Positions 3-25,463 of a DNA stretch of 64,000 nucleotides are shown here, one piece after another. Location: positions 32,001 to 96,000 of IMG/VR virus record IMGVR_UViG_3300027969_002800. One strand, given 5' to 3'. The translations under genes and the position numbers were made by a program. The DNA is from a virus. Below the pieces are notes generated by a model. It was not told the DNA's origin, searched no databases, and saw only the letters and a program-made list of their open reading frames with translations. The first letter of the stretch is position 1. Every line of letters starts with the position of its first letter.

Positions 3-3000
3 AGGTTTACACAAGAGATAAATCAAAACCTTGATGGTAACTATTATGTATTAATTCCTGCAGATGGTTCTACTGAGTGGATGATGAATCTTGGTAACAC
101 TATAAAACTAAAAGAGATTGAGGGTGGAAGAGCTTGGAGTAAAATCAATAAGATATTTCAAGGATATTTAAAAGATGATATAGCTCTTGCTTTAGATGCT
201 GATAATAGAGAGAAGTTAAATAATATTGGAAACAAAGCTAAAGAACTAAGATTCTTCAAAGATATACTTTCTGAAAAAGCACTAGCTGATATAAATGAAC
301 TTATATCTGAGAATGCTACTATGGAATCATTTGAAACTTACATTAGTGAGAATGCAGAAGATATTAATAATTCTATAAAAGAATACATAGATTCAACTGT
401 TGTTGAGACAAGAGAAGTGCTTACAGAGAATAAACAAATTAGATTACTTAAAGAGGGTGTATACGCTTATAGTGGATTAATTGACACATTTGCAAAAAAT
501 GAAGCATTTGATAAGTTTGCTCTTTCTGATCAAACCATAAATGATATATTGACATTTGCTAATGTTAATTACATCATTAATAATATTGAATATCACAAAG
601 TTTTATTTGGAGATCCTTATCAGTTTGCTATTAAGAAAGATGGTTCATTAGATGAGACCAAACGTATCAAATCTTTCTTATCTCCTAGAAGAACTACATT
701 TGATACTCCTGAATTTAATACATTCTTGAATCAAAAGTTAAATAAAATTGGTGAGATTAATTTAAAACCTGGAGACCCTGGATACCAACAATTCAAAGCT
801 TATACTAACACTGTAACATTTAAAGATGTAACTATTGCAGGAAGTCTTAGTAATGCTATTTCTGCTTATAGTAAAACAAATGAAGCTGATGCAATGTCTT
901 GGTTAATGGATGGTACATATAGAGAGATTAAACTTAAGAATGGTCAATGGAGTGAAGAAGCTGAAGCTTGGCACCAATGGCAAATGGCTTATACAAGACA
1001 AAACTATCCAGGATATACATACACTAGTGATAACCTTAAAAGACATGATACTGCTTTAGTTAAAACTAAAGAGCCTAAACATGTATTGGAAGTATTAAAA
1101 CCTATTGTGTCTGGTAATAAATATGGTAAAAACAATTTAGATCTTGTTCTAGATAAGTTTTCACAAATGCCTGTATACTACAGTATGGTAAAAGGTACTA
1201 CACTGGAGAAACTTTATGTTAAGATGTTTGAGGCTGGTGTAGGATATGCTATTGTTGAATCTGGTAGAAAGGTTGGAGCTGAAGAGTTACATTCATTGTA
1301 TAATACAGATGGTTCATTTAATGATAATGCATTTAATAATAATATTCAAGTGCCTTGGAAAGCTTATGGTATCCAAGTAGAAACTGCAACAGAAGGAGTT
1401 AAACAACAAACAAGAGGATCTCAGCTTACTAAGTTATCAAGTATGGATTTATTTGATAATGGTCAGACTATTGGAGCTACACCTGAAAGACAAGAAGCTA
1501 TTAGAAATGAATACAATCGTAATGTAAAGATATTAAATGATTTACATCAACATGGATATAACACTCTATTAACTAGACTTGGTGTTGTAGATAATGGAAA
1601 CGGATTTACACTTAAAGATGGTAAAGCTGTATCTGAAACTCTTATGCGTGAATTGTTAAGAAGAGAAGCTTCTGATAATACAATAGATACATTACAGCTT
1701 GATAAAGAGACTAATCAATTCTTAATTCCATTTGAAGCATCTCCTTCTTATATTGAGATAAGAAATGTTCTTTACTCATTGATTGATAAATCTATCATCT
1801 CTCCTAAGATGAATGGTGGTGCTCATGTACAGGTGCCTGCAACAATGTTTGAACAAGCAACTAAAGGAAGAAGTCTTGCTATTAAAACAGCAGAAGGTTG
1901 GAAGAAAATATCTAAAGAAGCTTATAATGCTCTTTCTGATGCAGATAAAAAGAATGTAATGTTAACTGATGACACACTTAAGTTTTACACTAAAGCAGAT
2001 CCTTATTGTGAAATATTACTTCCTCATTGGTTAAAAGGTAAACTTGGTAAACATGCAGATAAATCTGATGAAGAACTAATAGAATATCTAAACAATACAC
2101 CTGATGGTAAAGCTTTGTTACAAGGTATTGGTTTCCGTATTCCTACACAAGCTCTATCCTCTGTAGAAGCAGTTAGAGTGAAAGGGTTTCTTCCACAATA
2201 CATGGGATCAACTGTTGTTGTTCCTTCAGAAATCACTACTAAAGCAGGATCGGATTTTGATATAGATAAGTTAAATATGTACCTTAAATCTACTTACCTA
2301 GATAAGAATGGAGATGTTAGACTAATCAAATACATGGGATCTGAAGAAGCTACTAAGGAGTTCTATGGTGATATGTTTGATAAAGGATTACTTCTTAGCA
2401 AAGAACAAACTAGACAACTAGAACAAGAGCTTGCTCTTGGTAAAGATGCTGAGTATGAAGATAGACTTGTTAAGAGTATGTTTGGTGATCTTGGTGTATT
2501 CTCTGATGAAGACATCATTGATGACTTTACTAAATCATTAACTGAACAAGGAGTCAAAGAAACTGTTGTAAATGAAATGTATAAGAAATCTTTAGAGAAT
2601 GAATACTATGACTCTCTTGAGAAACTTATAACATTACCAGAAAACTTTGAAAGACTTATATCTCCTATTGGTGATGCTGGACTTAAGGCATTATCTATCG
2701 AATTAGATAAGTTAAGAGGGTATGATGAGACAACTATTAAGAATAGAATGCTTGATAGAAACTATCTAACTACTCTTAGAAACTCATTTGTTACAGCTAA
2801 ACGTTGGGTAGGTATTGCAGCAGTTAATATTACAAATCTATCATTGAAACAAAAGAGTGAAGTGTATATCGATCCTTCTAAGTTCTCAGGATTATCTGAA
2901 CAAGATGAAAGATTCTTAGGTGATGGAGAGATTGCATTGAAGCATAACACAGTGATGATTGATGGACAGGAAAGAGTTTCTTTATCTGGAACAACAGTAA

Positions 3001-5750
3001 AAGATTCAACTGAACTTATATCTAATAGACTTTCTGGGTATGCAACATCTTTTGTGGATGTAGCTAAGGATGACTATATAACTAAGATTATACAATCAGA
3101 TCTTGTTATTGGTACATTTATGTTCCTTGAGAATATTGGAGCAGGTGAACAAGCAGCAATGTTCTTAAATCAACCAATCATTTCTGAATACTTAAAATAT
3201 TTAAATAGTGTAAGTGCTAAAGGATTATTTACTGGTAAAAATATTGGAGTTATAAAAGATAAATTTGTAACTACTAAAGATAATCTTGCATCTACAGAAT
3301 TAAATGTTACAAACTTAGATGGTAACATTGTAGATTATTATGCAGGCACTACATTCAATGCAACAAGAAATGCTGAACAACATAAGATACTTGATGAATT
3401 CTTGAAATATGCTAAGATGGCTGAGTATAATTTTAAATTTACACAAGCTACAAACTATGATACCACTAAACTAAGAAGTGCTGAAACACTTTCTAAGAAA
3501 CAATGGAGAACACAAACTGCATTAGATACAAACATAATAAGTTCTGTTGATAATATATTGAATTCTACATTCATTGGACCACAGTCTAAATTCTTAGATA
3601 AGTCTACAGAAGCAATGGGAGCTGTTCTTAAACTTGATCAACTTGAGTTTAAAGAAATAACTAACACTGTTCTTAAGAGCTTTGGTAACAATGAGTACTT
3701 GGCTAATGATAAGTTTGAGAAGATAGCAGTGGAGATCAAAGCTGCATTCATTGACTATGTTGTACAGAATGAAACTAAGTATAGTGACAGGATAAAAGAA
3801 TTGCTTATAGATGATAACACTTCTGTGGCAGTTAGAATGGAAATAGCTAAGCAGAACAATCCAAACCTACAAATTCTTAAAGAGTTGCAAGTTGAAACAG
3901 GAGAAAGACCTGATGGTGTAAAAACTATTAGATTAAAGGTGAGACCTGATAATGCTGCTGATAAGAATATGTACACAGGAATGATGAGAGAACTTAGAGA
4001 CACTCCTGCAACAAATCAATTATATAAAGACATTGTAGAACTATCTATATTACAAGGAACATATGCTTCTCCATTATCTATTAGAGAGATTATCCCAATA
4101 GAAGACTACAGTGCTATAGTTGAACCAATCATTTCTGGACTTGTAGCTAACAAAAGTCTTGATGAGTTTACTAAAGGATGGTATCAAAGAAACAATTTCA
4201 AAAACTCTGATGTATTTCCTACTGTAGAAAACATTAAGTTCTTTCAGTCATTCACAGAACAACCTATAAGAACACCAGAAGGAGATCTATATAAATACTT
4301 CTCTTATGCATTTCCATCAGCAGAAGGTCTTGGCATAAAAGATGAGGATAGAAAGATTTTATTCCTTAGTGAGAAATATAACTTTATGGATTTAAAACAT
4401 GACTATGTTAAAATTCCTAGAGTTGTAGGTGGTATAGATATGGTTAATGGTAGAGAAGTTAGTTCAGCTGATTATGCCAGAAGAAAAGCTAAAGGTGATT
4501 ACTCATTAAAAGATTACTTTGGATATGAAAAAGTTAAAGATGAGTATGGTCAACCATTAATTATATATAAAACAATTAAAGGAGAAATAATAGGTCATCA
4601 TGTATACAAACTTATCAATCTATATGGAGATGGTAATAGAGCTACAGAGAACTATGAATATTTCAAACCATCAGTGATTGATAATGGATCAATGAAAATT
4701 GATGCAGAGATTCCTAATGCTGACATTATTAATTATTATGGTGCTAGTTTAGAAAAAGAAGACTTATCTTTACCAACAGAAGAAGTTATAACTGAACCTA
4801 AACAAGTGACTGAAAAATCTAAAAATATAGAAGTGGTAGATAGATACTCTATTACAGATGTACAAGCTAACCCAAATAAGATTTATGTATTTGGAGATAA
4901 TACTAAACGAGTAGGAACTGGTGGGCAAGCTCAAATTAGAAACAATCCTAATGCTATGGGTATTGCTACAAAATTAGAACCATCTAATGAACCTAATGCA
5001 TTTATGTCAGATAAAGATTTAGCTAGTAATAAAGAGGTAATTGATGGTGATATAACTAAGATAAAAGCAACAGGAAAGGCTATTGTATTACCTAAAGATG
5101 GATTTGGTACAGGACTTGCTAAACTAAAAGAAAAAGCTCCACAAACTTATGCATATTTAAAACGAAGACTATTAGAAGAATTTGGATTTGATAATGATAA
5201 AGGAACTATAACTGAACAAGTTGAAAAAGCTAAGCAAAGAGAATTGTTTACCTTTGAAAAAGGTATAGCTCAGAAATCATTCAGAAACAAAACTCTTAAC
5301 TTTGTAGATAAAATTACTACTAAGAAAGATACAGTGGTAGGTATGCAGTTTAATAAACAAACAAAAATAATAAATGTTGATCAAAAGGCGATGGTTCAAA
5401 AGTTTGAAGAAAAAGCTTGGACAACTCCTTCTCAACAATTAGATGGATCCTTTGCTACAGCTCTTGATGCAAATGAATTCAAGTCTGCAGAAGAGTGGTT
5501 TACATTTGGATTACTACATGAAGTTAAGCATGATACTATATTTAAAGAAGAAGGTGAGACTACTGGTCAATATGAAGATAGAATCAATCAAGCTGCATTA
5601 GAAGATCTAAGAAAGAATTATAATATTGAAGAATCTACAGCTGAAGTTATGACAGATTTAGGAATGCCAATATCTTTGCTTGGAATTTCTCAAGAAGAAT
5701 GGAATAGTTTATCAGTAGAGGAAAAAGAACAAATAAAAAAATGTAATTAA
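3..5750 (+). CDS. Giant virion-associated RNA polymerase, crAss-like (5' truncated by the window edge)
   Basis: Frame is open from nt 3, upstream of the annotated Met at 81. Catalytic DxDxD motif in AGSDFDIDKLNMY, preceded by IGFRIPTQ as in crAss-like vRNAPs; more than 1900 aa. The C-terminal region adds a YVFGDN..G.GGQA domain and an LLHEVKH (HExxH) motif. Confidence 0.88.
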   Translation, partial: RFTQEINQNLDGNYYVLIPADGSTEWMMNLGNTIKLKEIEGGRAWSKINKIFQGYLKDDIALALDADNREKLNNIGNKAKELRFFKDILSEKALADINELISENATMESFETYISENAEDINNSIKEYIDSTVVETREVLTENKQIRLLKEGVYAYSGLIDTFAKNEAFDKFALSDQTINDILTFANVNYIINNIEYHKVLFGDPYQFAIKKDGSLDETKRIKSFLSPRRTTFDTPEFNTFLNQKLNKIGEINLKPGDPGYQQFKAYTNTVTFKDVTIAGSLSNAISAYSKTNEADAMSWLMDGTYREIKLKNGQWSEEAEAWHQWQMAYTRQNYPGYTYTSDNLKRHDTALVKTKEPKHVLEVLKPIVSGNKYGKNNLDLVLDKFSQMPVYYSMVKGTTLEKLYVKMFEAGVGYAIVESGRKVGAEELHSLYNTDGSFNDNAFNNNIQVPWKAYGIQVETATEGVKQQTRGSQLTKLSSMDLFDNGQTIGATPERQEAIRNEYNRNVKILNDLHQHGYNTLLTRLGVVDNGNGFTLKDGKAVSETLMRELLRREASDNTIDTLQLDKETNQFLIPFEASPSYIEIRNVLYSLIDKSIISPKMNGGAHVQVPATMFEQATKGRSLAIKTAEGWKKISKEAYNALSDADKKNVMLTDDTLKFYTKADPYCEILLPHWLKGKLGKHADKSDEELIEYLNNTPDGKALLQGIGFRIPTQALSSVEAVRVKGFLPQYMGSTVVVPSEITTKAGSDFDIDKLNMYLKSTYLDKNGDVRLIKYMGSEEATKEFYGDMFDKGLLLSKEQTRQLEQELALGKDAEYEDRLVKSMFGDLGVFSDEDIIDDFTKSLTEQGVKETVVNEMYKKSLENEYYDSLEKLITLPENFERLISPIGDAGLKALSIELDKLRGYDETTIKNRMLDRNYLTTLRNSFVTAKRWVGIAAVNITNLSLKQKSEVYIDPSKFSGLSEQDERFLGDGEIALKHNTVMIDGQERVSLSGTTVKDSTELISNRLSGYATSFVDVAKDDYITKIIQSDLVIGTFMFLENIGAGEQAAMFLNQPIISEYLKYLNSVSAKGLFTGKNIGVIKDKFVTTKDNLASTELNVTNLDGNIVDYYAGTTFNATRNAEQHKILDEFLKYAKMAEYNFKFTQATNYDTTKLRSAETLSKKQWRTQTALDTNIISSVDNILNSTFIGPQSKFLDKSTEAMGAVLKLDQLEFKEITNTVLKSFGNNEYLANDKFEKIAVEIKAAFIDYVVQNETKYSDRIKELLIDDNTSVAVRMEIAKQNNPNLQILKELQVETGERPDGVKTIRLKVRPDNAADKNMYTGMMRELRDTPATNQLYKDIVELSILQGTYASPLSIREIIPIEDYSAIVEPIISGLVANKSLDEFTKGWYQRNNFKNSDVFPTVENIKFFQSFTEQPIRTPEGDLYKYFSYAFPSAEGLGIKDEDRKILFLSEKYNFMDLKHDYVKIPRVVGGIDMVNGREVSSADYARRKAKGDYSLKDYFGYEKVKDEYGQPLIIYKTIKGEIIGHHVYKLINLYGDGNRATENYEYFKPSVIDNGSMKIDAEIPNADIINYYGASLEKEDLSLPTEEVITEPKQVTEKSKNIEVVDRYSITDVQANPNKIYVFGDNTKRVGTGGQAQIRNNPNAMGIATKLEPSNEPNAFMSDKDLASNKEVIDGDITKIKATGKAIVLPKDGFGTGLAKLKEKAPQTYAYLKRRLLEEFGFDNDKGTITEQVEKAKQRELFTFEKGIAQKSFRNKTLNFVDKITTKKDTVVGMQFNKQTKIINVDQKAMVQKFEEKAWTTPSQQLDGSFATALDANEFKSAEEWFTFGLLHEVKHDTIFKEEGETTGQYEDRINQAALEDLRKNYNIEESTAEVMTDLGMPISLLGISQEEWNSLSVEEKEQIKKCN

Positions 5751-8700
5751 ATGGCAAATTGTGTTAATATAAATTCCAAAGAATTTAAAGAATTAAAACG
5801 ACAAACTAATTTGTCTGAAAAAGTTCTACAGGCTAAAGTAGGTGTATGGCAAAATAAGAATGGAGAAGAAAATTTTCCTTCTAAAGAAGATATATATTCT
5901 GATATGTCTATTCCTAAAAGACTTGGAATTTTTAAAAAAGAAGTAAGTTACTCGCAATCTATAAATATAAATAAGAATGTAAGAATATATAATAAGAATA
6001 ATGATACTTCTTTATATGTAAACTTTAAAAAAGTTGGACAGGCAGATATCTATACATGGGATATTGTAGATAAAAGAAGCGGACAATCTATTTTTTTACA
6101 AAAAGAAGGAACAGAGATAAAATCTGCTGCTTCAAAAACCATTGCTGCATTAAAAGATTTCACTAAACGTATTGGTGTAGATATAAAAAATGTAAAAGAT
6201 ATAGTGGTAGATGGCGTTAGACAAGATGCTAATGGTGCTGCTATAATGATGCAAAGACTTATTGAAGTGGTAGAGGGTAAAGAAGCTCAAGCTCTTCCTG
6301 AAGAAGCTATGCACTTTGCTGTTGAGATAATTGAACAAAAAAATCCTAAACTATTCAATCAACTTCTTAAAGAGATCACTGATTATACTATTTATAATGA
6401 TGTACTTAGAGATTACTCAGATGATCCTAAATATCAAACCCCAGAAGGCAAACCAGACATCCGTAAGCTAAAGAAAGAAGCTATTGGTAAAGTGTTAGCT
6501 GAAGTGGTTATTAATCAATCTGAGGGCATCAGTGAGCATCCAGAGAAGATAGCTAAAGTTGAAACTTGGTGGTCTAAAATAATGAATAGTTTAAAAAACT
6601 TATTTACTACAAGTGGATTTGATCAAGCTTCTATGGATATACTTTCTGGTAAGAATATTGGTACAGCTGAAGATATAACAAGTACAGATGTTTATTTACA
6701 AAAGACTGAAGCATCTAAACAAGAACAAATTTATAATTCAATAAAAGAAATAGCTAGTAAGATAAAGAAAGAAGATGATGGCTATTCTATAGATGGTAAG
6801 AAGATAGGTAGAAGGGTTTCTGATATTGTATCAGACTGGTATAAAAGAAGACTGGGAGAAGGATCATTAACTAATGATGAGTTCACTAATACAGTTAATG
6901 ATCTTAAAGCAACCAAAGGTACAGCAGGACATGCTGATCTTGAACATGCATTTGAAATATTTGTTGATGAGAATGGAAAATTGAGAGATGAGATATTAAA
7001 TGATGATGGATATGTTTCTCAATTAAATCCTAATGATAGAACTATGTATGATATATTGAAGAAGAATCTTCAAGATAGACTTGCTACATTCCCTAAAGGA
7101 ACTATATTCATGTCTGAAGCTACATTATATGATGCTAAAAGAGATATGGCAGGTACTGTGGATTTCTTAGCTATTACACCAGAAGGAAAGGTGAACATCC
7201 TTGACTGGAAGTTCATGGATCTTAATACAGATAAGTATGAAGATATTCCTTGGTATAAAATCAATGCATGGAACATTCAGATGGAACAATATAAATACAT
7301 GATTAGTCGTGTATACAATGTTAAGAATGAAAACTTTGAACAAACAAGGATGATTCCTATAAAAGCTGTTTACTCAGAGGCTAATAGAAAGACAGGAGCA
7401 ATGCCTCAATTGCTAAGTATTAAGATTGGTGATGTAAATGTTAAAAATATACAAGAGGATTATTTAATTCCTGTAGGTCTTGAAGCTGAAAAGACTGGAA
7501 ACAAAAAGATTGATGGCTTATTAGAAAAACTAAATGGTATCTATAAAAAACTTTCTGCAGAGAAAGCTCTTCCTTCAGAAAAAATAAACAAGGCTGAGCA
7601 ATTGAATGCTTTGTTTTCTGCTATTAGACAATTGCAAATGAAACAAAACATTGCTCCATTATTATATCAAGCAAAAGTTTTGAATAAACAAATCGAAGCT
7701 ACAATAAATATATACAATACTAAATTCAAGGGTGAGGATAAATCTAAATTTACTGAAGTTGAAATTAGTGAGTTTGCTAACACATTAGAAGTTATACAAC
7801 AAGCTTTAGATTCTTATATGAATCTAGATACAGAATTAAAATTCTTATTTCAAGGTGAATTATCTGAAGAAGATAAGAAGTTAAAAGAAGAACTTAGAGA
7901 TACAGTTGATAATGCTAGAGAGTACAAGGACCAATTAAAAGATGTTGATATAGAATATATAGAAAACTTTGTTGGTGGTTCTGCTACTGCTGAGAAGATA
8001 GTGAAAGGACTAACCAAGTGGTTTGGTAACACTGCTACAATTCAATTAAAAGCATTAGAGGTGCTATTTAAAAAATCTAATAAAGCATATGCTTTAGCTG
8101 GAATGGATGTTCAAACAGAAGTTAAAAAACTAACTAATATAAAGAGTTCTTTTGAAAAGTGGGCATCAGCTAAAGGACTTAGTGTTAAAAATCAATTTGA
8201 TTTACTTAAGAAGAAAGAGTCTAATGAATTAATCGATGAGTTCGATCCTACGTTTTATTCTACATTAAAAGAAAAGATTAAAGATAAAGACATTAGTTGG
8301 ATCAAAGATAATGTAGATGTAGAAGCATATAGAAAATATCTTGAAGAAAAAAGAGAGGAAGAGTATCAAAGAATTGATGATAAAGCTGCGTACAGAGTAG
8401 GTAGCGAAGAACAAATTAATAAAGATATAGCTAGAGAGAAATCTAAAGTGAGTGATCTTTATAATATTCTATCAGATAAATCTGTAGGATGGTTACTTGA
8501 AAATGATATAAAGAAGTTTCCTAAAAGAGAAACTTGGGAATCTGCTGAATGGAAAGAATTAAATAAACCAGAGAATGCTCCAGCTAAAGAGTTCTATGAT
8601 TACATCAAAGAAAGAAATCAATATTACCAAAGTATAGGATATATAAATGCAGCTGATGCTAGAACGTTTCTTCCATGGGTTAGAAAAGGTTTTACAGAAA

Positions 8701-18546: not shown

Positions 18547-19154
18547 GTTTTATAAAAAAGAATTATATATTTTTGATTATAGCAATCTTAGTTTCTATAA
18601 TCTTATTACAGAGATGTGGAGCTGATAAACCTATTAAGCCTGTACCACCAACTGTAAAGATAGACACTGTGTGGGTTAAACACGACAGTGTAATATATTC
18701 TAAGCCTAAGATAGTAACAGTTATTAAAGGAGTTCCTCAGATACAATATGTACCAGATACATCTTATGCAAAGCTTGTTGTACAATACAAAAGTTTAGTT
18801 GATCTGTGTACAGCAAAGAATGTATACTCAGATACATTGAAAATAGATTCTATTGGATATATAAATGTTTTAGATACAATTTCAAAAAACAGAATACAAG
18901 GAAGAAGATTCAAGTATAACTTAAAATATCCAGTGGTCACTAAGACAATCACACTTCAAGCACCTCCTAAAACACAAGTGTATATAGGTGGAGGATTACA
19001 AGGAAACCAGTACAACATAGTAAATCAGTTTAATGCAGGATTATTGCTTAAGACTAAGAAAGATAAAATCTATGGGGTGTATACAGGTATAGATACAGAT
19101 GGTAGAATACAATATGGCTTACAAAGCTATTGGAAGATAAAATTAGGCAAGTGA
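18543..19154 (+). CDS. Membrane-anchored/lipoprotein, putative spanin-like lysis protein
   Basis: N-terminal hydrophobic segment ending LLQRC; DTVW..DS repeats typical of Bacteroidota-phage lysis lipoproteins. Confidence 0.5.
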   Translation: MSFIKKNYIFLIIAILVSIILLQRCGADKPIKPVPPTVKIDTVWVKHDSVIYSKPKIVTVIKGVPQIQYVPDTSYAKLVVQYKSLVDLCTAKNVYSDTLKIDSIGYINVLDTISKNRIQGRRFKYNLKYPVVTKTITLQAPPKTQVYIGGGLQGNQYNIVNQFNAGLLLKTKKDKIYGVYTGIDTDGRIQYGLQSYWKIKLGK

Positions 19155-19417
19155 CAATAAGACTATTTAAATACATAGAACCATTATGGTTAGGGACCAA
19201 CAGTAAGATATCTATACGCAAGATCTTATCGTTGGCTTTTTCTATTGATTTAATAAAGAACATATCATATACAATACATAGTTGGGAAACAGGTAAATCA
19301 TATTCTGATGTAGCTATGTTATTAGGACTAGAAGCTGCTCTTATAGCTGCTCTCCTATCACTCACCACATATTCAACTATGGTGGCAAATAAAAAATCAA
19401 ACACAGAAATAGACTAA
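19130..19417 (+). CDS. Putative holin
   Basis: Small, two hydrophobic segments, immediately upstream of the endolysin. Confidence 0.5.
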   Translation: MEDKIRQVTIRLFKYIEPLWLGTNSKISIRKILSLAFSIDLIKNISYTIHSWETGKSYSDVAMLLGLEAALIAALLSLTTYSTMVANKKSNTEID

Positions 19418-19836
19418 TGGTAACAAGTGCACAAGCTTTAAAGAAATACGGAGATCCAACTAAAGAATCTGGTATGACATTATGGGATGTACCAAAAGAA
19501 TTAGAAATAGGCGTTCTACCTAAGAGATTATATTGTAACAAAGATATGATCCTACCACTAACCAAAGCTTTTAAAAATCTTATATCTACAGGATGTGTTA
19601 AAGAATTAAAAACTTGGGATGGTTGTTTCAATATAAGAAAGAAAAGAGGACTCACATCAATGTCTTTACATTCATGGGGAATTGCTATTGATGTGAACGC
19701 TGCATGGAATGGATTAAATAAAGAGCCACAATTGAGTAAAGAGTTTGTGAACTGTTTTACAACAGCAGGATTTGAATGGGGAGGAACCTGGACTGGTAGG
19801 GTCGATGGTATGCACTTTCAATTAAGTAAAATATAA
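19417..19836 (+). CDS. Endolysin, M15 family peptidase
   Basis: SLHSWGIAIDVN and WGGTW...DGMHFQ zinc-peptidase motifs. Confidence 0.88.
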   Translation: MVTSAQALKKYGDPTKESGMTLWDVPKELEIGVLPKRLYCNKDMILPLTKAFKNLISTGCVKELKTWDGCFNIRKKRGLTSMSLHSWGIAIDVNAAWNGLNKEPQLSKEFVNCFTTAGFEWGGTWTGRVDGMHFQLSKI

Positions 19837-19839
19837 TAT

Positions 19840-20355
19840 ATGTGGAAAGATATTAAAGATTACGAAGGTTTATACTGGATAAATGAACTAGGTGAAGTTA
19901 AAAATAGATTTAATAAGATTAAGAAAACTGTAACATCTTTATATTGTAAGTATCCATCTATAATATTGGAAAAAAATAATGTAAAGAAAATATTTATGGT
20001 TCATAGATTAGTTGCAATTTATTTTATAGATAATCCTAATAATAAATCACAAGTAAATCATATTGATAAAGATAAATCTAATTACAAAAAAGATAATCTG
20101 GAATGGGTAACCCCAAAAGAAAATATGGAACATCATTATAAGAATGGCGGTGTTAAGAGAAATAATCAAACTTATAAGAATAAATTTGGTTCAGAGCATA
20201 ACAGAAGTATTAAAATAGAGAGTAATGGAATTGTGTACGAAGGTATATCAGATGCAAGTAGAAAATTAGGAATACCAATTTCAACTATTCATTATTCTTT
20301 AAGTAATAACAAATTAATGCGAAATGGAATGCATTTCCAATTGAAATCTATATAA
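19840..20355 (+). CDS. NUMOD4-HNH homing endonuclease
   Basis: MWKDIKDYEGLYWINELGEVK (NUMOD4); VHRLVA..VNHIDKDKSN..NLEWVT (HNH_3). Confidence 0.9.
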   Translation: MWKDIKDYEGLYWINELGEVKNRFNKIKKTVTSLYCKYPSIILEKNNVKKIFMVHRLVAIYFIDNPNNKSQVNHIDKDKSNYKKDNLEWVTPKENMEHHYKNGGVKRNNQTYKNKFGSEHNRSIKIESNGIVYEGISDASRKLGIPISTIHYSLSNNKLMRNGMHFQLKSI

Positions 20356-20483
20356 TGAGAAGATGTAATGATGTATATGAAATAGTAACTGTTTACTATC
20401 CCACTGGTTGTGTTAATACAACTAGAACCACTACATCTACATCTACTACATTAACACCAACTACTACTACAGCAGCACCATAA
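20355..20483 (+). CDS. Small Cys + Thr-rich peptide (42 aa)
   Basis: MRRCNDVYEIVTVYYPTGCVNTTRTTTSTSTTLTPTTTTAAP; TAATG overlap with the upstream stop; not in the ORF track. Confidence 0.6.
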   Translation: MRRCNDVYEIVTVYYPTGCVNTTRTTTSTSTTLTPTTTTAAP

Positions 20484-20493
20484 TAATATAAAA

Positions 20494-20868
20494 ATGGCTA
20501 TACCAAGTAAACAAATAGGTGGAAGTGTAAACTATAATCTTCTTTGGCAGATATCCAAGCAATTAGAACAATTGATTTGTATTAGGTCTGGAAATTGTAC
20601 TACCACTACCACTACAACAGCAGTGCCAGTTTATTCTTTTGAATTATCATATAATACCGATAGTAAAGGATTTGCATGTGCCAGTCCTTTTTTAAGTACT
20701 TATTACTCATCATCTACTTCACTAATTAATGGTGTAATTTTATACACTGATTATGCTTTAGGTATTGTTGCACCTAATGGATGGTATGCAAATGCAGATA
20801 CGAATGTTGCATATGAAATAACTAATGGTGAGGGTGTGATTACTACTGCAACATATTGTGAAGAATAA
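20494..20868 (+). CDS. Thr-tract protein (putative virion decoration)
   Basis: MAIPSKQIG..LLWQISKQLE N-terminus, CTTTTTTT linker, beta-rich C-terminal domain. Confidence 0.55.
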   Translation: MAIPSKQIGGSVNYNLLWQISKQLEQLICIRSGNCTTTTTTTAVPVYSFELSYNTDSKGFACASPFLSTYYSSSTSLINGVILYTDYALGIVAPNGWYANADTNVAYEITNGEGVITTATYCEE

Positions 20869-20888
20869 TAAATAAAAACCAACTACAT

Positions 20889-21905
20889 ATGAAAGATTTA
20901 AAATTTGTGCAAAGCTGCCCAAGTGATGTATATTACACATGGCAAGTACATTTATGGCTTGAGAGCTTAAGAAACATTGGACATAGTGATAAAGCTATAT
21001 CAGTGATATTCACACCCAAGGGGAGAGAGAATAGAGACAAATGGAAACAGATAGAAGACCTCTATCCAGAATCAGAGTTTCATTATTACAATGATGAAGA
21101 CAATTTAAATCAACTGTTAGGAATATATATTCCTGTACTAAGACCATATGTACTTTGGAAACATTTCAAAGCTAATCCAGAACTAAGTGAGAAAGCAATA
21201 TTCTATTGTGATTCAGATATTCTATTCACTAAAGATTTTAATGTAGATGAGTTCTTAGATGATAATGTTAACTACCTATCAGATACAAACAGCTACATCA
21301 ATGCTACATATTTTGATAGTAAAGAAAGAGATGTTCTCCCAGAGAAGCTAGAAGCATACAAAACAAGAGATGTTCTTGGAGAAATAGCTAGTGTTATTGG
21401 TATAGATAGAGCAACATGTGAAGCTAACAATCTACACTCAGGAGGAGCACAATATCTACTAAAGAATGTAGATGGTGAGTTCTGGAGTAAGGTGATGAAT
21501 GATTGCATTCTTATTAGAACATATTTACAGAATGTAAATAGAGAGTTCTTTAAAGATGAGAATACAGGTTATCAATCATGGTGTGCAGATATGTGGGCTG
21601 TTCTTTGGAACTTATGGTTTAGAGAACAAGAAACAAAAGTGGTTCCTGAACTAGCGTTCACCTGGGCAACAGACCCAATATCTAAACTAGAATCTCACAC
21701 AATCTTTCATAATGCAGGAATAACAGGAGTATCAATGAATGGATATCCTTGTTTCTACAAAGGAAAATATCATCAAGGAACTGATCCTACAAAAGATCCT
21801 CACTTAGATGATGTATTAAACAATATAGAATCACAGAAGTATTGTACATGGTTCTATGCAAACGAACTTAACAACATAAAGCAAAAATATAAACTTAATT
21901 ATTAA
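20889..21905 (+). CDS. GT-A fold glycosyltransferase resembling peptidyl-Ser/Hyp O-glycosyltransferases (SERGT/HPAT-like)
   Basis: YYTWQ..LRPY..FYCDSDILF (DxD)..SWCADMWA parallels the YFDWQ..NKP..LDADMI..WISEMY pattern recalled for the GT95/GT96 families. Confidence 0.6.
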   Translation: MKDLKFVQSCPSDVYYTWQVHLWLESLRNIGHSDKAISVIFTPKGRENRDKWKQIEDLYPESEFHYYNDEDNLNQLLGIYIPVLRPYVLWKHFKANPELSEKAIFYCDSDILFTKDFNVDEFLDDNVNYLSDTNSYINATYFDSKERDVLPEKLEAYKTRDVLGEIASVIGIDRATCEANNLHSGGAQYLLKNVDGEFWSKVMNDCILIRTYLQNVNREFFKDENTGYQSWCADMWAVLWNLWFREQETKVVPELAFTWATDPISKLESHTIFHNAGITGVSMNGYPCFYKGKYHQGTDPTKDPHLDDVLNNIESQKYCTWFYANELNNIKQKYKLNY

Positions 21906-21922
21906 TAACAAAAACAATTATC

Positions 21923-22156
21923 ATGAGTAACAAGAGAGACCTTAAGGCCTATGTAAGATTCGATGGATCTGGCAGAATTGTAGCAGGAAGTTTAGTCCTA
22001 AGAAGAAGTAAACCAAAGGTTGGTAAATGGCAAGAAATTACAGCATACGAATGTTGTAACTATATTCCTACTACTACCACAACAACAACAGCAGCACCTA
22101 CAACTAGTACAACTACTACAGCAGCTCCTACAACAACTACAACAACCACCGTTTAA
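21923..22156 (+). CDS. Small protein: conserved ~40-aa module + poly-Thr tail
   Basis: LKAYVRFDGSGRIVAGSLVLRRSKPKVGKWQE, then ECCNYIPTTTTTTTAAPTTSTTTTAAPTTTTTTTV. Confidence 0.65.
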   Translation: MSNKRDLKAYVRFDGSGRIVAGSLVLRRSKPKVGKWQEITAYECCNYIPTTTTTTTAAPTTSTTTTAAPTTTTTTTV

Positions 22157-22166
22157 TATTTAAACT

Positions 22167-22598
22167 ATGGCACTAAAATCACTATTTCCAGAAGAAATGA
22201 TGGAAGGTAAATCAGGAGGGGGTAGTGGGCTAACGCTAGAGACTATCGCTGGGAAGTTATCATACTTCTACGAACAATTACATTTGTTACATTTTCAAAC
22301 TACATCATTTGCTGAGCATGAAGCTTTAGGTAAGATATATGATAAGGTGGGAGATTTCCAAGATGAAATCATAGAGAAGATTATGGGATATTCAGGAAAG
22401 AGAGTTAGAGCATACAAGATTGATGCTTTAAAAGATTATTCAGGAGGTATGCCTAACACAGTGGTAAAAGAGTTAGTTACATTTGCTAAACAATTAGAAG
22501 AGTTTGGAGAAGCTAACAATATGCCAGACATAGAGAATGTTGCTCAATCATTAAGCGGAGAAGCAGCTCAAACTCTTTATAGATTAACCCTTTCATAA
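22167..22598 (+). CDS. Ferritin/Dps-like protein
   Basis: LHLLHFQTTSFAEHEALGKIYD..QDEIIEKIMG four-helix-bundle metal ligands; ends LYRLTLS. Confidence 0.75.
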   Translation: MALKSLFPEEMMEGKSGGGSGLTLETIAGKLSYFYEQLHLLHFQTTSFAEHEALGKIYDKVGDFQDEIIEKIMGYSGKRVRAYKIDALKDYSGGMPNTVVKELVTFAKQLEEFGEANNMPDIENVAQSLSGEAAQTLYRLTLS

Positions 22599-23811: not shown

Positions 23812-24453
23812 ATGGCAATTACTAAAGTACCTAATGGTCCTCTTATTAAACCTAAAGGTCCATTTAAAGGAAGTACATTGAAAGCTGGTGGTAAGATAAT
23901 CAAGAAAGCTCAGAATGGTAAAACTTGGCAAAGTATGTCTCAACCTGAAAAGGCAAGTAAAATAGCTGAGTTAAAGCAAAAAGGAGGATTTGAGAACGTT
24001 AAGAGATATAAAGACTCAATAAGTACAGATGCTGAAAATAGACGTAATGCAGCATTTCAAAAAAATGCAGATGTTAGAGGACTAACTGTAGAACAGTTAA
24101 GACAAGCTAATAAAAAAGACGAACGTAAGCCTGACTTAACACCGAAGGGTGATTATAAAATGAGAGAAACCAAAAGTGCTAATACAGATGGCCCAAGTTT
24201 ATTAAGTAGATTAAATCCACTTGGAGACAAAGCTAGATGTATTTATACTAATAATCGTGGTAAGGCTGAAACAAAAGCTAATGGTGGAAAGGTTAAGAAA
24301 GCTAAAGCTGGAGCAATGATTAAACGTGCTGATGGTTCATTCTCTAAACCTGGTCTTTGGGATAATATCCGTAAGAATAAAGGATCTGGAAAGAAACCTA
24401 CTAAGCAAATGTTAGTGCAAGAAAAGAAAATAAAAGCTAAATCTAAAAAATAA
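23812..24453 (+). CDS. Lys-rich protein with repeated KxGG/AxxG motifs
   Basis: LKAGGKIIKKAQNGK, KANGGKVKKAKAGAM and GLWDNIRKNKGSG motifs. Confidence 0.6.
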   Translation: MAITKVPNGPLIKPKGPFKGSTLKAGGKIIKKAQNGKTWQSMSQPEKASKIAELKQKGGFENVKRYKDSISTDAENRRNAAFQKNADVRGLTVEQLRQANKKDERKPDLTPKGDYKMRETKSANTDGPSLLSRLNPLGDKARCIYTNNRGKAETKANGGKVKKAKAGAMIKRADGSFSKPGLWDNIRKNKGSGKKPTKQMLVQEKKIKAKSKK

Positions 24454-25463
24454 TGGCAAATTGTAAAAATTGTAATTCTAAGCTAAAAGCATATGCTAGA
24501 ATTGATGGAACAAACACACTTGTTTCAGGAAGTCTTGTTTTAAGATTAACAAAACCTAAAGTTGGAAACTGGAAAGAAGTACAACCTATAGAATATTTTA
24601 ATAAAACTTCTCAACATTATCTTGACATAGTACAAGCTACATATCCAGATGCTAAATTAGCTAACACTGTTGCTATTAAGTTAGAACAATTTCTTTCTGA
24701 TAGAGGAATTTATGCTAACAATACAGTTTTAAATTACACTTCATGTTCAGATGATGTTAATGCTCCTGAGTTTGCTAACATATTTAATATAGGTCAAACT
24801 CCTCCAGCATTAAATGAATTCCTTGGACCATTTATGGGTGGTGGTTTAGCAGGTTATCCTCATACAGGTGCTTTAGGATTACAAGCTTGGCAAAGTCATG
24901 CTACAACAGATACTCCTATTGATGGGCCTTTATTATTAATTAATATGCCTCACATAGGTGTTACACAACAAGCTGATCTTGTTGCTAGTAATGATAATGT
25001 GGGTAGAATGTTAAGAAGAGGAAAAACTTCTGCTACAGCAGATAATACATGTGGAGCTGTAGTTACAGCTGCTCAATGGGTTATGACTAATACAGCTAGT
25101 GGGCCTACTCCAGTGAGAGGTGCAGGTGTATTTGCTAATAATGACCAATACTTCACTCTTGCCACTATATTATGGGCAAATAGATCTACATTATGTAATT
25201 CTACTAATAACTTTGTACTAGATCCTACTAAATATAGTGCTGGTGTTAAATTAGCTACAGAATATATTAGAGCAAAAAGTTTTACTGATTTAAAAAATAC
25301 TTTAATACCTGTTCTTATAGGACAAAAGAATTTATATTTCCTAACTGCTACATTTATTAATACTGACGATGAGTGGGCTCCTTGTATTGATTTTAAAGAA
25401 TTATGGCTTTGGGATTCAGGAGCTTGGACAAATCTTACAACACAATTTAATACATATTTATAA
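24453..25463 (+). CDS. LCIB-family beta-carbonic-anhydrase-like protein with an N-terminal module shared with ORF 21923
   Basis: SCSDD, GGLAGYPHTG..A..SHA, PHIG, GRMLRRGK and TCGA reproduce the Cys/His/Cys zinc-ligand pattern recalled for LCIB/LCIC. Confidence 0.65.
   Translation: MANCKNCNSKLKAYARIDGTNTLVSGSLVLRLTKPKVGNWKEVQPIEYFNKTSQHYLDIVQATYPDAKLANTVAIKLEQFLSDRGIYANNTVLNYTSCSDDVNAPEFANIFNIGQTPPALNEFLGPFMGGGLAGYPHTGALGLQAWQSHATTDTPIDGPLLLINMPHIGVTQQADLVASNDNVGRMLRRGKTSATADNTCGAVVTAAQWVMTNTASGPTPVRGAGVFANNDQYFTLATILWANRSTLCNSTNNFVLDPTKYSAGVKLATEYIRAKSFTDLKNTLIPVLIGQKNLYFLTATFINTDDEWAPCIDFKELWLWDSGAWTNLTTQFNTYL

Follow-up and report, generated by a model that had tools for sequence, protein, structure and literature searches.

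The sequence analyzed here is a window of 64,000 nucleotides (bases 32001-96000) from the virus record IMGVR_UViG_3300027969_002800, which is 116,993 bp long and rated complete, and in which a gene for a predicted glycosyltransferase (GT) is enclosed by three short open reading frames (ORFs) with threonine-rich tracts. We consider it likely that this locus belongs to a phage O-glycosylation system for Thr-tagged virion proteins that is built on a new GT-A family. The preliminary description of the window had proposed an enzyme-plus-substrate cassette for Thr-rich phage proteins, and this proposal is now supported by the fold of the enzyme, by synteny, and by presence and absence across unrelated phages. 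Judged by its protein matches, the phage is crAss-like: a 517-residue protein matches Pfam Crass_capsid (E 9e-28), an 861-residue protein matches a portal PHROG (E 1.6e-99), and a 1,748-residue protein matches the Crassvirus muzzle protein (E 1.9e-37). The G+C content of the window is ~31-35% (measured in segments of 2 kb).

The four ORFs are present where the preliminary description had placed them, every one on the + strand (Table 1), and the enzyme locus lies inside a long + strand late block, after large tail-like ORFs, an endolysin gene, and a homing endonuclease gene. A six-frame scan of the window returned five Thr-rich tracts. Four of these fall within the three ORFs that flank the enzyme gene, and the one that remains, a weak ATTTPT, is read from an antisense frame; the clustering of Thr tracts around the enzyme is not a matter of chance. 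The tracts draw on ACT, ACA, ACC, and ACG as Thr codons and are therefore no simple or slipped DNA repeat. In the 77-residue protein, the tract is composed of three 7-residue Thr/Ser runs (TTTTTTT, TTSTTTT, and TTTTTTT) with AAP spacers.

The enzyme matched no Pfam family at E <= 0.1 and no PDB chain, either by sequence (phmmer) or with the family profile, and blastn of positions 20355-22156 gave no match in the phage collection. Its sole family match was PHROG 4417, annotated as "unknown function" (E 2.4e-54). The family comprises 762 representatives at 50% clustering (E <= 0.001) and 2,733 proteins at 90% clustering (E <= 1e-5), and the best 120 of these 2,733 relatives are all unnamed or "hypothetical" and without a Pfam domain. 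The motif order reported earlier (W18-Q19, R85-P86, D108-S-D110, W231..D234-M235) is readable in the enzyme. In an alignment of 68 family sequences, the two aspartates of the DxD motif, D108 and D110, are invariant (68/68), R85 and D234 are conserved in at least 90%, and further invariant residues are Y80, Y136, Q229, F257, H274, K291, and Y323.

In the structure model, the enzyme has a Rossmann-like GT-A fold in which D108-S-D110 comes right after strand 103-107. The nearest solved folds are retaining enzymes of families GT8, GT24, and GT6, so the enzyme itself probably retains configuration. In the fold comparison, glycogenin and the Skp1 alpha-galactosyltransferase scored highest (14.3 each), followed by LgtC (14.2), WbbM (13.5), the catalytic domain of UGGT (13.3), GlyE of the pneumococcal serine-rich-repeat pathway (13.2), LARGE1 (12.7), and the capsid-glycosylating A64R of PBCV-1 (10.9). 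Taken with the conserved motifs, the model makes a DxD-dependent GT-A nucleotide-sugar glycosyltransferase the most likely function. The enzyme has no hydrophobic segment and is hence called soluble. In contrast to its structural likeness to GT8 (glycogenin, LgtC, GlyE), it has no sequence relation to that family: identity in the structural alignments is 8-12%, and the GT8 model was not matched by the enzyme and is absent among the 25 listed of the 28 Pfam families touching the 68 relatives (E <= 1). In GT8 enzymes, the third metal ligand (His) and the diphosphate-binding Lys stand in a C-terminal H..G..K motif; H274, G277 (at least 90%), and K291 are conserved here, with a spacing unlike that of the GT8 motif. 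Extra methyltransferase, GT2, DXD-sugar-binding, or GT6 domains were found in five of the ten longer relatives scanned, as might be expected of an enzyme that builds glycans.

A scan of IMG/VR with a 12-sequence alignment of the enzyme gave 80 related loci, with enzymes 62-99% identical. Flank counts were restricted to loci with enough flanking DNA. On the upstream side, 65 of 74 loci had a Thr-run ORF no more than 1 kb from the enzyme, and on the downstream side this was true of 70 of 75; such an ORF stood on both sides in 56/69 loci and on at least one side in 69/69. Within 1 kb of the enzyme the density of runs was 1.89 per kb (294 in 155 kb), versus 0.019 per kb (14 in 732 kb), ~100-fold lower, at distances of more than 3 kb. 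A homologue of the 77-residue ORF stands directly downstream of the enzyme in 78/80 loci, and a homologue of the 124-residue ORF is present in 63/80, mostly upstream. A sequence homologue of the 42-residue ORF was found in just 3/80 loci; in most of the 80 relatives, going by their ORF listing, a different ORF of ~44-58 residues ending in T7-8 starts ~160-205 nucleotides upstream of the enzyme.

The same association is seen in phages of other lineages. Searching 50,697 phage records with the enzyme (tblastn) yielded 77 records, with 26-35% identity among the 40 listed, and placed the enzyme in phages of Lactobacillus, Enterococcus, Staphylococcus, Lactococcus, Clostridium, Arcanobacterium, and Chryseobacterium. 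In all 11 enzyme-bearing phages examined, the crAss-like phage included, a Thr-rich tract lies within or at the end of the gene or frame that immediately precedes the enzyme. In Enterococcus phage phiFL1A, the major tail protein ends in TTTTTSTTTTTTSSTTTTTTT and the capsid protein also ends in Thr runs, and Enterococcus phage VPE25 has a poly-Thr frame overlapping the end of the capsid gene and T10 on the tail tube protein. Both the capsid and the tail tube protein are Thr-tailed in Lacticaseibacillus phage R3.3 and Lactobacillus phage iLp84, the latter also encoding a 129-residue poly-Thr protein. Lactococcus phage 1706 has the tails T9-HHD and T10-HHD, Staphylococcus phage PMBT8 a tail protein with T16, and Levilactobacillus phage ENFP1 a (TTVAP)n tail that the strict run criterion overlooked. 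Clostridium phage phiCTP1 and Arcanobacterium phage TPWB06 have Thr-tailed structural proteins, and Chryseobacterium phage MA9V-3 has poly-Thr proteins. Annotated major capsid and major tail proteins are found among the tagged proteins of the Gram-positive siphoviruses, with C-terminal Thr tails on annotated capsid and tail tube proteins in phiFL1A, R3.3, iLp84, 1706, phiCTP1, PMBT8, and TPWB06. In virulent and temperate phages alike, the enzyme gene is part of the head/tail morphogenesis modules and comes immediately behind a capsid or tail tube gene. Poly-Thr frames that overlap the 3' end of a structural gene in another frame were seen at the capsid gene of VPE25 (5725-5880) and the tail tube gene of TPWB06 (18921-19187). 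Such overlapping frames before the enzyme may be programmed-frameshift extensions that put a long Thr tail on a fraction of the subunits.

As matched controls we used five phages that have a major tail protein of the phiFL1A type and no enzyme: Javan47, Javan505, phiJL-1, ATCC8014, and phiLpTT2. None of the five has a Thr tail on a structural protein, and the lone run among them, TSTTTSTS, opens a non-structural ORF of Javan47. Three of these controls, phiJL-1, ATCC8014, and phiLpTT2, share the genus Coetzeevirus with the enzyme-bearing, Thr-tailed R3.3. The hypergeometric probability of 11/11 versus 0/5 is 1 in 4,368, for lineages that are not fully independent. No GT1 or GT2 genes were found in five small enzyme-bearing phage genomes; the enzyme is the only recognizable transferase there, which favors an initiating role.

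The length of the runs is narrowly distributed. In the 80 related loci, [TS] runs of 6, 7, 8, and 9 residues occurred 6, 221, 74, and 13 times, and pure T runs of 6, 7, and 8 residues occurred 21, 216, and 33 times, the usual Thr unit being P-T7-AAP. The peak at seven might reflect an acceptor groove that acts as a ruler. A Cys was said earlier to precede the Thr tract in each flanking ORF, and this rule extends past the window. A Cys lies within 10 residues upstream of 6/10 tract clusters in the 117-kb genome (background 0.19) and of the run in 130 of the 183 distinct poly-Thr ORFs in the 80 related loci (background 0.20); in the family of the 77-residue ORF it precedes the run in 92/97, mostly by 3 or 5 residues. 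The tails of the Gram-positive phages have no such Cys, so the enzyme family in general does not depend on it.

The 49-residue N-terminal module of the 77-residue protein is the hallmark of an ORF family with 142 members in 78 loci. Poly-Thr is present in 112 members (76 short ORFs with Thr runs and 36 long ORFs with Thr runs and a further domain), and 30 have no run (23 long, 7 short). The same module opens a 336-residue protein of the window (phmmer E 5.2e-12; hidden Markov model (HMM) E 1.8e-19), where it is joined to another domain (Pfam LCIB_C_CA, E 2e-17), which makes the module a swappable head. This limiting-CO2-inducible domain is odd for a phage late protein. From these sequence architectures, the family looks like a docking head with a Thr stalk and an optional tip. 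The module HMM had no match in the MA9V-3 or Gram-positive phage loci; the predicted docking module is lineage-specific.

The three flanking ORFs turned out not to be the sole Thr-tract proteins, and so not the sole candidate substrates: the genome holds 15 tracts in nine proteins, all of them late proteins on the + strand, and the - strand early block has none. The Crass_capsid protein of this phage has no Thr tail. In the 396-residue head-module protein, the tail has the form C-[IV]-T5..AAP..T5..IP. It is kept in 117 of the 120 best homologues (76-93% identical) and in 79/80 viral contigs, and the Cys three residues ahead of the run is invariant in a 38-sequence alignment. The remaining three of the 120 homologues (P0359, P0361, P0362) end in C-x-IIPPSGNVP or similar and have no Thr runs; one of them was found in IMG/VR, on a 19-kb fragment too short for the enzyme region. 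Sequence searches of the PDB with the 396-residue protein and the Crass_capsid protein gave no match. Outside the window, three tandem paralogues share a 75-residue N-terminal module. In two of them this is followed by Thr/Ser tracts as long as 58 residues, and a Fib_succ_major domain forms the end of one. By their architecture, these paralogues are a second anchor-stalk-tip family in the same phage.

Table 1. Features of the enzyme locus, its surroundings, and other proteins of the phage genome (window positions unless marked as genome positions)
Feature	Position	Strand	Description
Giant late protein	3-5750 (genome 24779-37747)		Frame within a stop-free frame of 4,323 codons
GT1+GT9 fusion, 696 residues	15923..18013	-	GT1/GT4-type domain (Pfam Glycos_transf_1, E 1.7e-12) and heptosyltransferase-like domain (Glyco_transf_9, E 7.1e-06); on the opposite strand within the + strand late block
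M15 endolysin	19417-19836		Precedes the 42-residue ORF and the enzyme
HNH/NUMOD4 homing endonuclease	19840-20355	+	One-base overlap with the start of the 42-residue ORF
42-residue ORF	20355..20483	+	Cys4, Cys19, then a Thr/Ser-rich tail, TTRTTTSTSTTLTPTTTTAAP; predicted acceptor, least conserved of the three
124-residue protein	20494..20868	+	35-residue N-terminal part ending GNC, T7 linker, 80-residue C-terminal domain; predicted acceptor
Predicted enzyme, 338 residues	20889..21905	+	Soluble GT-A (GT8-like, DxD) glycosyltransferase, PHROG 4417
77-residue protein	21923..22156	+	49-residue N-terminal module, YECCNYIP, 28-residue PTTTTTTTAAPTTSTTTTAAPTTTTTTT, V; predicted acceptor
DUF5856 protein	22167-22598	+	PHROG 'starvation-inducible regulator', Dps/ferritin-like; downstream of the poly-Thr ORF
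336-residue protein	24453..25463	+	Module of the 77-residue protein, no Thr run, LCIB_C_CA (beta-carbonic-anhydrase-like) domain
Tandem paralogues (three)	genome 3298-4518, 4535-5869, 5886-7553		Common 75-residue N-terminal module
396-residue head-module protein	genome 110428-111618		C-terminal Thr tail
Muzzle protein			Three Thr runs near the C-terminus
406-residue protein			58-residue Thr/Ser tract
444-residue protein			Two tracts and a C-terminal Fib_succ_major domain
121-residue protein			C-terminal Thr tail

Two neighbors of the locus differ in how regularly they accompany it. A homologue of the homing endonuclease occurs in just 8/80 related loci and at varying positions, so this HNH/NUMOD4 gene looks like a mobile insertion. 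The DUF5856 gene is found downstream in 68/80 relatives, its start lying a median of ~600 nucleotides past the end of the enzyme gene.

We propose the following mechanism. A soluble, cytoplasmic, metal-dependent (DxD) enzyme would, late in infection, use a host nucleotide-sugar as donor and O-glycosylate the hydroxyls of short Thr runs. Typical acceptor runs would be P-T7-(AAP), often 3-5 residues after a Cys, which the phage would add to late proteins of its own, either as tails at the C-terminus or as linkers between domains. In the crAss-like phage, the tagged proteins would be those of the three small flanking ORFs, the muzzle protein, two modular fiber-like proteins, the 396-residue head-module protein, and the 121-residue protein. 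Other transferases could extend the glycan, among them the GT1+GT9 fusion, a possible accessory enzyme for this step, and the GT2, GT6, or methyltransferase domains fused to relatives of the enzyme. The outcome would be a hydrophilic glycan brush over parts of the virion, which may shield it from proteases, aggregation, or recognition, or else help it adhere. A broader version of this idea is one that we put forward tentatively, and we would sooner expect parts of it to fail: the P-T7 run, with an upstream Cys in the crAss-like lineage, would be a portable, length-quantized glyco-tag read by one dedicated soluble transferase in phages of at least three bacterial phyla, so that capsids, tail tubes, muzzles, and swappable anchor-plus-tag-plus-lectin proteins would carry a mucin-like glycan brush.

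Several points weigh against such an O-glycosylation system. The evidence for glycosylation of the Thr tags is comparative throughout. The 80 loci are related, so that their counts are not independent events, and several of the 11 isolate lineages share structural modules. That the tagged small proteins of the crAss-like phage sit on the virion is something we infer, and the structure model of the 396-residue protein was unusable (predicted local distance difference test score 46.3, from 38 sequences of 76-90% identity). The association also has limits in a distant subfamily. A second scan, with the distant family member P0130, gave 51 loci from other phage types. A strict run lay within 1.5 kb upstream in only 28 of the 47 loci with enough upstream DNA, and somewhere in the fetched stretch in 39/51. 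Among the 12/51 loci lacking a strict run, the upstream gene of four contains a Thr-rich segment with interruptions; in 8/51 loci there is no convincing tract, some of these having almost no flank. Run density in the distant loci was 1.48 per kb near the enzyme versus 0.12 per kb far from it. The expectation that the enzyme and Thr-rich ORFs co-occur in relatives was borne out in the close loci and the isolates, with exceptions in this subfamily. Finally, some of the closest structural matches (LgtC, WbbM, XXYLT1) are enzymes whose acceptors are sugars and not peptides, so the enzyme could extend an existing sugar.

This last point leads to an alternative that we regard as unlikely, in which the enzyme does act on the Thr tags, but second, after a host enzyme or another phage transferase, such as the GT1+GT9 fusion, has added the first sugar. 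GlyE and other GT8 enzymes, which add the next sugar on serine-rich-repeat adhesins, provide a model for it. However, the GT1+GT9 gene is not tightly linked to the locus, being present in just 26 of the 55 related loci with at least 5.2 kb of upstream DNA, and in the five small genomes lacking GT1 and GT2 genes the host would have to prime tags that are seen only in the presence of the phage enzyme. Moreover, glycogenin, a joint top fold match, glycosylates protein directly. Less probable still, in our estimate, is that the target is a non-protein acceptor of the host (cell-wall polysaccharide, teichoic acid, lipopolysaccharide, or capsule) and that the Thr runs are unmodified linkers; the role could then be superinfection exclusion or release. 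It is well known that some phage transferases modify glycans of the host surface, and poly-Thr linkers are unglycosylated in some proteins, both of which count for this reading, as do the eight of 51 distant loci in which the enzyme has no detectable tract nearby. Modification of host surface glycans by phage transferases is also mentioned in a published article (PMC12619734). Against it stand the position of the gene within head/tail morphogenesis modules and the solubility of the enzyme, the Thr tails on capsid and tail tube proteins that track the enzyme in the isolates and their controls, and a tag length quantized at 7, which a mere spacer would not need.

Many phage GT-A and GT-B enzymes glycosylate DNA, and the enzyme might in principle protect phage DNA against restriction by glucosylation of hydroxymethyl-pyrimidines of the T4 type; phage GT enzymes in DNA glycosylation are also the subject of a preprint (bioRxiv 10.1101/2023.12.21.572611). 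We consider this role highly improbable. No thymidylate-synthase/hydroxymethylase-like gene was found in the 117-kb genome by a search that was positive in 10 of 14 control genomes. The family is also present in temperate siphoviruses of 36-40 kb, inside the structural module, and DNA glycosylation leaves the co-variation with Thr tails unexplained.

The preliminary description had also seen a resemblance to plant peptide glycosyltransferases, and here kinship with GT95 or with GT96 (peptidyl-serine alpha-galactosyltransferase) could not be established. The HPAT family (hydroxyproline O-arabinosyltransferases of plants and algae; CAZy GT95, PF23452) is similar in that its members glycosylate repetitive peptides rich in hydroxy amino acids. 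In contrast, neither the enzyme nor the genome gave any HPAT match at E <= 10, in a search that was also silent in control genomes. Two of the 68 relatives touch Pfam HPAT, with a best E of 0.012, below the curated cut-off; in the language-model (Atlas) neighbor cluster of the enzyme, PF23452 is found on 10% of the members, and no solved HPAT structure is among the fold matches. Any link to plant GT95/96 is sub-threshold at the sequence level.

The closest known parallel in biology concerns mycobacteriophages. Excerpts from two articles describe how, in mycobacteriophages (Che8, Rita, and others), subunits of the capsid and tail tube carry glycans at their C-termini as a proposed shield for the particle, and within these excerpts mycobacteriophages are the only phages in which virion glycosylation has been measured (PMC11256854, PMC12619734). 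As far as these excerpts go, that system resembles the one proposed here in its phage-encoded glycosyltransferases, its use of the phage's own structural proteins as targets, and the proposed shield role. The enzyme family is different, however, as none of the 77 records matched by tblastn is a Mycobacterium phage. The proposed Thr-tag system is further set apart by its predicted homopolymeric Thr acceptor, by an enzyme gene that directly follows that of the presumed substrate, and by its occurrence in phages of Bacteroidota, Bacillota, and Actinomycetota. The GT8 enzyme GlyE differs in its substrates, which are Ser-rich repeats rather than phage proteins with Thr runs. A64R of chlorovirus PBCV-1, a GT-A enzyme that glycosylates the major capsid protein, is a weaker fold match than GT8 and belongs to a eukaryotic giant virus; the capsid glycans of PBCV-1 are N-linked at non-canonical sites, not attached to Thr runs. 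Literature searches at the level of listings and abstracts returned no paper that describes this enzyme family or reports structural proteins of phages with poly-Thr tags.

The proposal is directly testable, as enzyme-bearing phages are available in culture and the enzyme-less Coetzeevirus relatives are natural controls. If the O-glycosylation system is real, the surfaces of capsids, tail tubes, and fibers of many phages, those used in Enterococcus and dairy research included, would have to be modeled differently, for example in cryo-electron microscopy, antigenicity, stability, and adhesion to mucus or polysaccharide. One unnamed enzyme family would then constitute a second, much more widespread virion glycosylation system, whose substrates could be read straight from sequence as Thr runs. 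Under the broader glyco-tag version, the enzyme and its tag would also offer a minimal pair for cytoplasmic glycoengineering, and virion O-glycosylation would be no curiosity of mycobacteriophages but a common phage trait that can be predicted from genes, one that covers abundant environmental crAss-like phages as well as model phages of Enterococcus and Lactococcus.

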